From assembly GCF_000015225.1 (NCBI RefSeq), contig NC_008698.1, positions 1,680,001-1,712,000 of the forward strand: a stretch of 32,000 nucleotides of DNA. Reading direction: 5' to 3'. Each line of letters starts with the position of its first letter. Positions within the stretch are counted from its first letter, which is position 1. Shown piece after piece: positions 10,105 through 25,111 of this stretch. This stretch comes from Thermofilum pendens Hrk 5 (GTDB taxonomy: Archaea > Thermoproteota > Thermoprotei > Thermofilales > Thermofilaceae). The position numbers and the translations under genes are program-made. The notes beneath the pieces are model-generated. The model worked only from the letters and a program-made list of their open reading frames with translations, did no database searches and was not told the origin of the DNA.

Positions 10105-10957
10105 GGCTCCTGGCCTTCAAGTAGAGGAGCGAGAGCCTCGCCCTGTCCTCCCGGGCTTTCTGCCAGCAGGTGTCCATGAAGGCTGACCCGCCGGAGGTCA
10201 GCCTGGACCTCGCGAGTGCCACGTGCCTCGCTATGCCGGCGTACACCTCCCGTAGCCTTCCGTGGACGCGGCTACCGGTCTCCGGGTCTACGAGGGTTGC
10301 GAGGGCGTCTGGGGGCGGGTGGACTTCCCACCAGTCGTAGACGAGGAGGTACGCGGCTCCCCTCGACGCGGCTAGGGTCTTCGAGGATCGCTCGAAGTCC
10401 TCCAAGCTGTGGGCGTAGTCCGTGACTAGGAGTACTGGGGCCCTTGGCAGGGCGAGGAGCCTCGCGGCTATCTCTCCCAGGGTAGCCTTGCCGGGGGCTG
10501 TGGAGGCGCATATCCTCGATGCAATGATGTGGGGCAGGTCTCTGGGCTTCACCTTCCCGTAGACCTCGAAGCCCCTCCCCGTGGATAGGACTAGCGTGAA
10601 CGTGTCCTCCAAGGTGTCTGCAACTGCGGCTATGACTGCCAGCGCATACACGAGGGTTTTCGGCTTGGACTGGTACAGCATGGAGGCGGAGAGGTCGACT
10701 GCCAGCGCGACCCTGGTCTTTCTCTCGGCCCTGTAGACCTTCACTATGGGCCTGTAGCCCCCGTCGGGGCCCGGGGACCTCGCCGTCGCCCTCCAGTCTA
10801 TGTGCCTAGCGTCGTCGAATGGCTGGTACTCGCGGAAGTCTACGTACTCGAGCCCTAGGCCCATCGACGAGACGGGGCTCGTCCCGGTGGCGTAGTTCGC
10901 CACGTCTCTCTCGGCGATCCTCAGCGCGCTCCTCGCCGCCCTGCAGTGATCATCCAT
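10088..10957 (-). CDS. DUF58 family protein (vWA-like partner of MoxR ATPases)
   Basis: Signature GLGLEYVDFREYQPFDDARHIDWRATARS, followed by the MIDAS-like VALAVDLSASM. Confidence 0.85.
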   Translation of the reverse strand: MDDHCRAARSALRIAERDVANYATGTSPVSSMGLGLEYVDFREYQPFDDARHIDWRATARSPGPDGGYRPIVKVYRAERKTRVALAVDLSASMLYQSKPKTLVYALAVIAAVADTLEDTFTLVLSTGRGFEVYGKVKPRDLPHIIASRICASTAPGKATLGEIAARLLALPRAPVLLVTDYAHSLEDFERSSKTLAASRGAAYLLVYDWWEVHPPPDALATLVDPETGSRVHGRLREVYAGIARHVALARSRLTSGGSAFMDTCWQKAREDRARLSLLYLKARSLKPPR

Positions 10958-10994
10958 ATTAAGCCCTTCGCCCCGGTAACCGCGGGAGCGGCAT

Positions 10995-11819
10995 ATGAAG
11001 TTTTACGACCCGGAGGAGCTCCTAGGCGCGCTCGTAGTGGACTCCGCTGGGCTTGTTTACGGCGTGGTGGGCGGGTACAGGCTGGCGCCCGAGGGGGTTG
11101 TCCTGGAGGCTTACGTCTCCCTGGGCGTGGACGCCGATGCCCTGAGGAGGGCTCTGCGCGAGAGGGGGGTTGAGCCGGGCGGGGAGGGGGTCGAGGCGCT
11201 CGTGCTGGCCGCCCGGAGGCTGGGGCTCGAGGTCCCCAGGGTCGGCGGCCGCGAGGTCAGGGTGCTGAAGGGGCTCGTGAGGCCCGGGGAGATCTCGCTT
11301 ATAGACGTGAGGGTGCTCGAGAACCCCTCCACCGGCGCCGAGGAGAGGATCGGGGTGGTGCTGCTGGGTAGCCAGCGGGAGGCAGAGTTCAGGGGGCTCA
11401 GGTTCTCCGGGGGCCCGGTGGTGGACGAGGGGGTTGTCGGCAAGCTGTGCGTGAGCGCGAGCAACGGGGTGCTCGGCTACGTGTACGGGTTCGTCGTGGG
11501 GGCGGGGGAGTCTGGGCTCAGGGCCTGCAGGAGGAGGGGCAGGGTCGAGCTCAACTGGGCGTCCTTTCTCTCCGAGGCTAGGCGGCTCGCCGGCGAGGAC
11601 GCCTACTACAGGCTGGTGGGGTTCCGCGACCCCTTGAAGAGCCCGAGGCTTTCCGGGGCGGAGGTCGAGGAGGCCAGGAGGCTCCTCTCGGAGATGGGCC
11701 TCCTCGAGAGGCTGTCGCCCCTCCTCGAGTCCCACTCTAAGAGAACGGGCCCGGCGGAGTGCGCGGACGTGCCGCTGAGAGACGTCCTCGCCGCCAGGGA
11801 AGTGGTGCTCGTAAAGTAG
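10995..11819 (+). CDS. Hypothetical protein with two PRC-barrel-like segments
   Basis: 274 aa. EELLGALVVDSAGLVYGVVGGYRL and EGVVGKLCVSASNGVLGYVYGFVV resemble the PRC-barrel consensus (hh-G-x-V-x-D-x-x-G-x-x-hG-x-V). Lies directly upstream of MoxR on the same strand. Confidence 0.5.
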   Translation: MKFYDPEELLGALVVDSAGLVYGVVGGYRLAPEGVVLEAYVSLGVDADALRRALRERGVEPGGEGVEALVLAARRLGLEVPRVGGREVRVLKGLVRPGEISLIDVRVLENPSTGAEERIGVVLLGSQREAEFRGLRFSGGPVVDEGVVGKLCVSASNGVLGYVYGFVVGAGESGLRACRRRGRVELNWASFLSEARRLAGEDAYYRLVGFRDPLKSPRLSGAEVEEARRLLSEMGLLERLSPLLESHSKRTGPAECADVPLRDVLAAREVVLVK

Positions 11820-24147: not shown

Positions 24148-24498
24148 TCATCCCTGCCCGGTCTCCCCGGGAGCGCCGGGGAGCTGGGCTATCACTATGG
24201 GCCTCCCCTCGAGGATCGCCGAGACAAGCTTCTCCCTACCGCTCTCAACGAGCCTCCACACGGTGGTTCTCGAAACGCCCATCCTCGCCCCCGCCTCCTC
24301 GTACGACAGCTTCTCCAAGTCTACCAGTCGGAGCGCTTCGACCTCCGCCGGTTCAAGCACCACGGGCTCTATGGGTAAAGGAGGCGGAGGGTAGGGGTTA
24401 AAGCCCTGCACGCTTGGAAGAAACCCCACGCTGACCGGCTTCGGCGGCCTTCCTATCCTCCCCCTCCTGTGCCTGTAGCACCACCCATGCCCGGGCAT
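24148..24498 (-). CDS. DUF134 (UPF0251) family HTH protein, putative transcriptional regulator
   Basis: MPGHGWCYRHRRGRIGRPPKP ... VVLEPAEVEALRLVDLEKLSYEEAGARMGVSRTTVWRLVESGREKLVSAILEGRPIVI matches the DUF134 architecture (basic N-terminus plus sigma-70 region 4-like HTH). ATG 24498 preferred over TTG 24504. Confidence 0.85.
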   Translation of the reverse strand: MPGHGWCYRHRRGRIGRPPKPVSVGFLPSVQGFNPYPPPPLPIEPVVLEPAEVEALRLVDLEKLSYEEAGARMGVSRTTVWRLVESGREKLVSAILEGRPIVIAQLPGAPGETGQG

Positions 24499-24564
24499 CG
24501 CCAAACCCCCTACACCTTAACAAGCCGGGTACCCTTCATTTAAAGCCTTCTTTAAGCGTAATGC

Positions 24565-24588
24565 TTAAATATTTCGTGATTTATCACG
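24565..24588 (+). promoter_or_regulatory. TATA-like TTAAATAT followed by the dyad CGTGAT-TT-ATCACG (candidate operator)
   Basis: TATA at 24565-24572. Dyad at 24575-24588, between the TATA and ATG 24606. GGTGAGG SD-like at 24594-24600. Confidence 0.5.
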
Positions 24589-24605
24589 TAAATCGGTGAG
24601 GCAGA

Positions 24606-24833
24606 ATGAGTTGGTGGGGTGGGTGGCCTGGTAGGGGTCCTTTCAGCTACCTGCCGCCCTGGCAGAGGCCTGGCTGGGTGTTCGGTAGGGGTGCTTGCTG
24701 GCGGCTAGCACCGTACACTTGGGCACGGTACCCGTGGACACCTTACTACCCAGCGCCTTACTACTGGGCGTACTACCCAAAGCCCTACTACCCAGCACCC
24801 TGGCAAGCTAGGTACTGGTTGCCCTGGTGGTGA
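24606..24833 (+). CDS. Trp/Tyr/Pro-rich small basic protein (75 aa), unknown function
   Basis: My count: 13 W, 12 Y, 15 P, 7 G, 6 R, 1 K, 0 D/E. Promoter and SD-like element upstream. Reiterated PYY(P/W)A units. Confidence 0.6.
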   Translation: MSWWGGWPGRGPFSYLPPWQRPGWVFGRGACWRLAPYTWARYPWTPYYPAPYYWAYYPKPYYPAPWQARYWLPWW

Positions 24834-24838
24834 TCCGC

Positions 24839-25111
24839 ATGGCTTTCGCTTGGAGGAGGTATTGGAGGGCTGGGTGGGGCGGCTGGGGTTACCCGCCGTA
24901 CTACGGCTATCCTCCGGCGATGCCTCCGTGGGCTCCTCCGATGTCCCCGGAGCAGGAGCTCAGGTACCTCGAGGACTACAGGCGGTGGCTGGAGGAGTAT
25001 AGGAAGAGCCTCGAAGAGGAGATAAAGGGAGTGGAAGAGGAATTGAAGGAGGTTGATTCGAGGATAGAGGAGCTTAGAAGAATGCTCGGCAGAGGAGCAA
25101 CGCCCCCGTAA
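24839..25111 (+). CDS. DUF5320-like small protein: aromatic/Gly/Pro-rich N-terminus plus C-terminal coiled coil
   Basis: MAFAWRRYWRAGWGGWGYPPYYGYPPAMPPWAPP, then SPEQELRYLEDYRRWLEEYRKSLEEEIKGVEEELKEVDSRIEELRRML. This architecture is characteristic of DUF5320, a frequent DUF134 neighbour (from memory). ATG is 5 nt after the upstream stop. Confidence 0.65.
   Translation: MAFAWRRYWRAGWGGWGYPPYYGYPPAMPPWAPPMSPEQELRYLEDYRRWLEEYRKSLEEEIKGVEEELKEVDSRIEELRRMLGRGATPP

Follow-up and report, generated by a model that had tools for sequence, protein, structure and literature searches.

Two described systems, IssA and the ORP complex, together with the protein family DUF5320 (PF17253), are the closest counterparts of a small gene, hereafter open reading frame 1 (ORF1), of the archaeon Thermofilum pendens Hrk 5. 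The gene lies in a window of 32,000 nucleotides (contig NC_008698.1, positions 1,680,001 to 1,712,000 of the forward strand), to which coordinates without a prefix refer. IssA of Pyrococcus furiosus serves in iron-sulfur (thioferrate) storage and joins a NifX-like domain to a tail of 70 residues (PMC5524996). This tail counts 11 prolines and 7 cationic, 14 aromatic and 15 glycine residues, and holds the only cysteine of the protein; it is predicted to be unstructured, with an isoelectric point (pI) of 10.7, and is conserved in composition but not in sequence (PMC5524996). It has been proposed to wrap anionic thioferrate chains electrostatically, with stabilising aromatic contacts (PMC5524996). 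The ORP complex of Desulfovibrio vulgaris Hildenborough comprises Orp3, Orp4, Orp5, Orp8 and Orp9; Orp3 and Orp4 contain two [4Fe-4S] motifs, and Orp8 and Orp9 carry a NifX-like 'Di-Nase' domain (PMC6345978). DUF5320 groups small uncharacterised proteins of anaerobes, built of a Gly/Arg/aromatic N-terminal segment with one cysteine after GRG, a linker and a coiled coil, and encoded in an operon context of DUF134, NifX-like and MinD-Fer4 genes. Literature searches found no functional papers on DUF5320, DUF134 or related COG numbers.

ORF1 is very probably a translated, conserved small protein that belongs to an operon set of the ORP/IssA type and corresponds, standing free, to the N-terminal module of an archaeal DUF5320-type protein. 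Equally probably, it and the adjacent ORF2 represent a fused protein split in two, aromatic and proline sequence having expanded on both sides of the break. ORF1 begins at the ATG at 24606, its sole possible start since a stop codon lies two codons upstream, and ends at the TGA at 24831-24833. An initial annotation of the window, drawn from its letters and open frames, had stressed the extreme composition of the 75-residue product, and the recount agrees exactly: 13 Trp, 12 Tyr, 15 Pro, 7 Gly, 7 Ala, 6 Arg, one Lys and one Cys, with neither Asp nor Glu. This amounts to 7 cationic, 27 aromatic and 15 proline residues and no acidic one, for a net charge of +7 and a pI of 9.8. All 12 Tyr codons are TAC. 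With a Trp plus Tyr fraction of 0.33, ORF1 ranks second of the 8,478 ORFs with 50 amino acids or more in the 1.81-Mb genome (replicons of 1,781,889 and 31,504 bp; 57.7% GC), where the mean is 0.038 and the standard deviation 0.026; the top rank (0.37) is held by a paralogue of ORF1 (C1:943134-943385). The remaining five frames across the region are closed or of low complexity.

The paralogue, 83 amino acids long, is 86% identical to ORF1. Similarity of the two DNA copies extends from ∼50 nt upstream of the ATG, a stretch that includes the TATA box, the dyad and the Shine-Dalgarno element, exactly to the stop codon. Over 75 aligned codons the pair shows 13 synonymous and 10 non-synonymous differences (non-synonymous rate dN 0.081, synonymous rate dS 0.397, dN/dS 0.20). 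Of 41 relatives, 34 contain homologous open frames, as far away as other families of the order, and homologues are present in metagenome proteins too. The family is recognized by a signature, the 18-residue core box WPGRGPFSYLPPWQRPGW followed by GRG-x-Cys, with 13-15 invariant columns; residues 7-31 of ORF1 satisfy it, and the family profile run on the window scores E 1.4e-18. A scan of one genome per species gives 310 core-box loci, archaeal without exception among those listed (Bathyarchaeia, Nitrososphaeria, Hadarchaeota, Thermoproteales, Desulfurococcales, Korarchaeia, Archaeoglobi, Methanocellales, Methanoliparum, Thermococci and one Promethearchaeota). Among 1.84 billion representative proteins, searched exhaustively with the profile, 136 clusters reach E <= 1e-3; all matches inspected carry the core-box signature, and no other kind of protein is found among them. 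One candidate member, a plant immunoglobulin-repeat protein of 1,225 amino acids (P0140), was discarded as a spurious low-complexity match. In 48 instances of the core box, 39% of the third-position cells depart from the commonest base, against 2.1% of the first and 0.1% of the second; all four Pro codons, all four Gly codons and six Leu codons are in use. As the instances were picked by peptide match, the informative part of this count is the freedom of the third position, which places the constraint on the core-box peptide and not on the DNA or RNA.

ORF1 could in principle be non-functional: a chance ORF, a decaying frameshift fragment of a fused DUF5320 gene, or a DNA or RNA element such as a G-rich structure. 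TGG-rich DNA is G-rich, a fused form of the gene is present in sister species, and the exact ORF1 protein is absent from a collection of 15 billion proteins, as are the paralogue and the ATG-start form of ORF2, ORF1 being present in the ESM Atlas. Against this stand the low dN/dS with a second intact copy, some 48 members of the same coil-less type across many archaeal phyla, the free third codon positions, the closed upstream frame of ORF2 (see below) and an Rfam search of the region that returns sub-threshold noise and no match. Already largely refuted by these observations, such a reading is extremely improbable. The genes of ORF1, the paralogue and ORF2 appear to be uncalled in public annotations of the genome. 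The initial annotation was right to take ORF1 for a gene and not for a compositional ghost, as the dN/dS, the conserved core and the homologues attest, and conserved homologues do lie at syntenic positions in related genomes, where it would have read their absence as refutation. It overlooked the paralogue, the split from a DUF5320-type protein and the link to a module of the ORP/IssA type.

The anatomy of the family was described from 73 collected members. A head of 7-31 residues (33% Gly, 22% Trp, 12% Arg) precedes the box. In the coil-less form (∼48 of the 73), the box and the cysteine are followed by a tail that ends 15-70 residues after the box, is composed of 23% Tyr, 17% Pro and 14% Trp without Asp, Glu or Lys, and is hypervariable in sequence. 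Exactly one cysteine is found in 44 of the 48 coil-less members and a terminal Trp or Tyr in 45; their net charges range from +4 to +10. In the fused form (∼22 members), a short linker and a coiled coil follow the box, and 20 of these proteins match PF17253. A metagenomic protein of 160 amino acids (P0190) combines in one chain the core box, a coiled coil and a C-terminal ferredoxin domain with a single 4Fe-4S cluster. As far as sequence comparison goes, the coil-less family is uncatalogued, with no Pfam or NCBIfam model and no PDB sequence match: Pfam (at E <= 1) and NCBIfam searches with ORF1 give no match, a PDB profile search gives nothing, and no published description of the family was found in the searchable literature.

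Within the genus Thermofilum, the split and the fused arrangements are both met. A single fused gene of 98-114 amino acids (core box, linker and coiled coil) is found in two members of the genus, 'Thermofilum adornatus' 1910b (G002) and T. uzonense 1807-2 (G005), and also in the relative G007; in the first two it lies directly 3′ of the DUF134 gene. ORF1 aligns with residues 11-54 of the fused T. uzonense protein (60% identity, E 1e-14) and ORF2 with its residues 36-100 (42% identity, E 2e-10). The match of ORF2 to PF17253 reaches 21.3 bits over profile positions 37-98, below the gathering score of 27; in a six-frame search of the genome ORF2 is the sole match (18.6 bits). The coiled coil missing in ORF1 is present in the adjacent ORF2, as in the fused orthologues. 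In the proposed split, ORF1 would have kept the core box with the single cysteine and gained a W/Y/P tail, and ORF2 would have kept the coiled coil and gained a W/Y/P head. A single gene interrupted by a frameshift or by an error of sequencing was considered and rejected: the frame of ORF2 is closed 5′ of 24827, coil-less proteins are an old and widespread type, and purifying selection acts on a second intact copy without a coil. The closed frame and the age and spread of coil-less forms together indicate that the split is no sequencing artefact.

The junction of the two genes is tight. The ATG of ORF2 lies 5 nt past the ORF1 stop, and its Shine-Dalgarno element (GGTGA, 24829) sits inside the last codons of ORF1, the TGG TGG TGA end of which (24825-24841 region) contains it. 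An SD-like GGTG is automatically present at the 3′ end of the gene in each of the 17 family members that end in WW. Endings of this WW-stop type suggest translational coupling to the next gene; GGTG itself is trivial in TGGTGG and hence was not counted as evidence.

The relation to DUF5320 was assessed by profile-profile comparison (hhalign) with an alignment of 46 canonical, mostly bacterial proteins (A2). The full core-box family matches canonical DUF5320 with 98.7% probability, in the coiled-coil columns only. The coil-less subfamily (A3) reaches 33% over 4 columns, and its core box has no detectable similarity to the canonical motif MPxGDxTGPxGxGPxTGRGxGxC; homology of the core box to the canonical N terminus is rejected by this comparison. 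The core box is best regarded as a distinct N-terminal module that stands in place of the canonical Gly/Pro/Arg motif, with only GRG and then a single cysteine in common. ORF1 shares with DUF5320 the operon context and the family plan of a Gly/Arg/aromatic segment with a cysteine after GRG, and archaeal proteins with core box and coiled coil are members of PF17253; it differs in having a W/Y/P tail free of Asp and Glu instead of a coiled coil, no PF17253 match and no canonical N-terminal motif. In Methanoliparum both N-terminal kinds lie side by side after DUF134, and NifX-like genes follow. A protein of 73 amino acids from Methanoliparum thermophilum (L097 1112..1333, + strand) has the canonical DUF5320 N-terminal motif and a duplicated aromatic/Pro/Arg tail without a coiled coil, and the gene next to it encodes a core box with a coiled coil. 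The 73-residue protein indicates that a tail instead of a coil arose in the canonical branch too.

The genomic neighbourhood places these peptides in a known type of module. The ORF1 paralogue heads a tight operon (locus B). The second gene encodes a protein of 78 amino acids whose head is aromatic, whose C-terminal helix is conserved and which has no Pfam match; next comes a NifX-like protein (PF02579) with an N-terminal extension of G/R/W/Y and Pro, and last two MinD-type ATPases with inserted 4Fe-4S ferredoxin domains (MinD-Fer4). The closest matches of the NifX-like protein are MTH1175 (1eo1, E 1.9e-10), TM1290 and the orange protein structure 2wfb (E 4.4e-4). Locus B thus resembles the ORP system in its two Orp3/Orp4-type MinD ATPases with two [4Fe-4S] motifs and its Orp8-type NifX-like protein, and the two systems have in common their restriction to anaerobes, divergent operons and a dedicated regulator. 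They differ in that DUF134 and a palindromic operator are found here, as against the sigma-54 activator OrpR, and no DUF5320-like subunit is described in the ORP literature searched, which did not include the founding ORP paper. ORP-type genes and ORF1 lie behind the same operator pattern, in two copies in the genome.

Across 80 family loci, scanned within 6 kb with hidden Markov models built from the module components, the neighbours are DUF134 (57 loci), NifX-like (51), MinD-Fer4 (40), DUF5320-type coiled coil (40) and the 78-residue partner (27). The commonest gene order is a divergent DUF134 gene, then the core-box gene, then a NifX-like gene. Of the 41 relatives, 26 have a core-box gene as well as DUF134 and 9 have neither; a core-box gene without DUF134 occurs in 1, and DUF134 without a core-box gene in 5. 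Genomes with both and genomes with neither are found together in three genera; as kin are not independent, no P value was attached to this comparison. In Methanocellales, a protein of 183 amino acids (L098 1486..2037, - strand) fuses a NifX-like domain, GRG-Cys and a DUF5320 coiled coil (PF17253, 38.6 bits), a Rosetta-stone fusion that on its sequence links NifX-like proteins with DUF5320. Extensions rich in G/R/W/Y occur on 26 of 75 neighbouring NifX-like proteins. The surrounding module is already known, being of the ORP/IssA type.

Proximity to the ATPases raises another possibility, namely that ORF1 is a partner peptide of the MinD-ferredoxin proteins, its basic, disordered N-terminal region with the invariant box contacting and regulating these deviant Walker-A ATPases and its aromatic tail tethering cargo or driving condensation. 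Small disordered or coiled-coil partners of ParA/MinD-type ATPases exist in the MinE, ParB and McdB peptides, and docking peptides typically have this form, a short invariant motif within a disordered protein. MinD-Fer4 genes lie near half of the loci and in the operon of the paralogue, but they accompany the core-box genes less constantly than NifX-like and DUF134 genes do. This role is rather unlikely; it is compatible with the iron-sulfur explanation developed below and does not exclude it.

Several further observations concern the neighbours themselves. The 78-residue partner (C1:943370-943606; L016 7371..7607; alike in L003-L009) has a W/Y/P head and a C-terminal helix with YYMEMYK and WRK. 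It represents a second uncatalogued small-protein family, holds rank 3 in the genome for Trp plus Tyr and directly follows the core-box gene in its 27 loci. Pairs of HEPN and nucleotidyltransferase (MNT-type) genes flank locus B on both sides (L016 6033..6449, 10164..10619 and 10612..11043; C1:936000-952000). A second NifX-like (PF02579) gene, at C1:1466546-1466812 in an open frame of 204 amino acids, is distant from both core-box loci. In uncultured Thermococci, a NifX-like protein (L087 3324..3950, + strand) has a long linker rich in Pro, Gln and Tyr, and its C-terminal segment, rich in Cys and His, ends in WRWW; two core-box genes follow, then an IssA-type NifX-like protein with a Gly/Arg tail.

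The control region of ORF1 (Table 1) has counterparts throughout the family. In every one of the family promoters first read, the TATA box is immediately followed by a palindrome, which is CGTGATTTATCACG in front of ORF1. Perfect GTGN-N4-NCAC palindromes occur in 49 of the 71 upstream regions analysed for the family, compared with 1.7% of background windows of 120 nt, and the form GTGC-N4-GCAC accounts for 46 occurrences among the upstream palindromes of the family. The palindrome lies a median of 36 nt 5′ of the start codon, often in two copies that flank the TATA box, and is conserved before core-box genes across many archaeal phyla. The exact pattern CGTGA-N4-TCACG occurs twice in the genome, once before each paralogue; a reversed control pattern likewise occurs twice, so that the exact count alone is not significant, and support for an operator comes from the position of the palindrome and its conservation across phyla. 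It is a candidate for the site bound by DUF134 regulators, an uncharacterised family. As the genome has only one DUF134 gene, the two operons are most simply read as a single DUF134 regulon, and both paralogue promoters are probably repressed by this one regulator.

Table 1. Features of the ORF1 locus in the T. pendens window
Feature	Position	Strand	Remarks
DUF134 helix-turn-helix regulator, divergent from ORF1	24148..24504	-	PF02001 E 9e-20; sole DUF134 gene in genome
TATA-like box	24565..24572	+	kept in paralogue promoter
Operator-like palindrome CGTGATTTATCACG, candidate DUF134 binding site	24575..24588	.	perfect 6+2+6 dyad
Shine-Dalgarno-like GGTGAGG	24595..24601	+	4 nt 5′ of ORF1 ATG
ORF1	24606..24833	+	75 aa: short G/W head, invariant core box, single Cys, W/Y/P tail
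Core box WPGRGPFSYLPPWQRPGW, family signature	24624..24677	+	residues 7-24; (nearly) invariant columns in alignments A1 and A3
GRGAC, with sole cysteine of ORF1	24684..24698	+	residues 27-31; Cys kept in at least 90% of members
Hypervariable acid-free W/Y/P tail, WW at end	24699..24830	+	family tail composition
Degenerate 15-nt tandem repeat (unit = 5 aa, PYYPA), 3.9 copies, within ORF1 tail	24741..24796	+	
ORF2	24839..25111	+	90 aa: W/Y/P head and DUF5320-type coiled coil; PF17253 E 6.5e-4, below cut-off

The constant association with a regulator also invites the idea that ORF1 is a nucleic-acid-binding or co-regulatory peptide. Its RGG-like head and cationic aromatic body would bind RNA or DNA, or would act on DUF134 as a feedback signal; the positive, acid-free chain and the Gly/Trp/Arg-rich head of the family would suit this role, and the core-box gene is almost always directly beside DUF134 and often the first behind the operator. 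However, the conserved neighbourhood holds no gene of nucleic-acid processing, the same low-complexity chemistry decorates NifX-like metal-cluster proteins, and the fusion partners of the core box and of GRG-Cys are coiled coils and ferredoxin, not nucleic-acid-binding domains. A function of this kind is improbable.

Taken alone, ORF1 is best read as disordered. AF2 run with the 73-sequence family alignment gives a mean pLDDT (predicted local distance difference test) of 49, a lone six-residue helix and no usable fold; the ESM Atlas model has a pLDDT of 0.32, and its structural neighbours in the Atlas, all with TM <0.5, are meaningless at that model quality. No transmembrane-like segment (maximum Kyte-Doolittle 19-residue mean 0.03) and no signal peptide were found in ORF1, as the initial annotation had stated, nor was any hydrophobic segment. 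The TATA-like box, the dyad and the GGTGAGG element that it had reported are all located in Table 1, and the PYY(P/W)A reiteration that it had seen in the C-terminal half is real in the DNA. The tail is hypervariable, and the signature of the family is the core box, which had escaped notice. The advice of the initial annotation to use non-tryptic digestion for mass spectrometry is unnecessary, as the 7 Lys/Arg residues give usable tryptic peptides, although two sites before Pro would remain uncut. Among its functional guesses, a cofactor binder and a self-assembling or stacking peptide are compatible with the findings, yet generic.

A conserved N-terminal part followed by a hypervariable C-terminal part is also the layout expected of a peptide precursor, with a conserved leader and a variable product that would be modified or secreted, either resembling ribosomally synthesized and post-translationally modified peptides or being a membrane-active peptide rich in Trp, Pro and Arg. 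In its cationic composition ORF1 is reminiscent of antimicrobial peptides, indolicidin among them. This origin is very unlikely: no modifying enzyme, protease or exporter recurs near the 80 loci (screened for the five module families, with several loci read by eye), ORF1 has neither signal peptide nor hydrophobic segment, its sole cysteine lies in the conserved part, and the tail is swapped for a coiled coil in sister species, which argues against a product-specifying core.

The best explanation of the whole combines the split DUF5320-type module with an iron-sulfur-binding peptide similar to the IssA tail, a proposal that falls slightly short of being probable. The iron-sulfur part on its own, argued by analogy, is more tentative still. 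It is put forward because ORF1 and the IssA tail share their chemistry: both are predicted to be unstructured, and both are cationic, poor in or free of acidic residues, rich in Pro, aromatic residues, Gly and Arg, conserved in composition but not in sequence, and endowed with a single cysteine, a chemical resemblance and not shown homology. Both are also linked to a NifX-like (IPR003731) domain, encoded separately in the case of ORF1, in the operon of the paralogue. In the proposed mechanism, ORF1 would be disordered on its own and its invariant core box would dock it on a conserved partner of the module. The tail would then act in trans as the IssA tail has been proposed to act in cis, binding anionic iron-sulfide material (thioferrate-like chains or cluster intermediates) electrostatically. 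Its aromatic residues may stack with the aromatic segments of ORF2, of the 78-residue partner and of the NifX-like extension, and the lone cysteine may serve as a ligand.

Several points weigh against this explanation. The likeness to IssA is compositional only, and even so ORF1 is about twice as aromatic and half as Gly-rich as the IssA tail. ORF1 is a separate polypeptide without a NifX-like globular domain, and no fusion of the core box to such a domain was found among the longer matches examined. An invariant box of 18 residues, unmentioned in the description of IssA, argues for a precise contact with a protein or an enzyme, beyond non-specific electrostatics of the IssA type. In the clade of IssA the core box is rare (4 of 81 sampled Thermococci), and the hits in two of the four genomes contain stop codons. 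Finally, the function of the ORP module is itself unsettled, the module being described as putatively involved in cell division (PMC6345978).

The near-invariant peptide box marks uncatalogued tiny proteins of the ORP/IssA module in at least 10 archaeal lineages, and genes such as ORF1 appear to be missed by standard gene calling. The ORP module is widespread. That split and fused forms of the gene occur naturally within one genus indicates that ORF1 and the DUF5320 coiled coil work together, and a simple operator would tie the genes of the module into one DUF134 regulon. On the analogy with IssA, one may go further and speculate, though this is unlikely as it stands, that core-box proteins form an undescribed class of free-standing, hyper-aromatic, acid-free polycationic peptides. 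Through their Trp, Tyr, Pro and Arg residues they would co-assemble with two small aromatic-headed proteins and with tailed NifX-like proteins, in a scaffold or condensate that nucleates, wraps or passes on inorganic iron sulfide in anaerobic archaea. To our knowledge, IssA is the sole characterised thioferrate store. If the speculation is true, these archaea would possess a modular, in-trans version of it, switched by a DUF134 repressor through an operator conserved across phyla.

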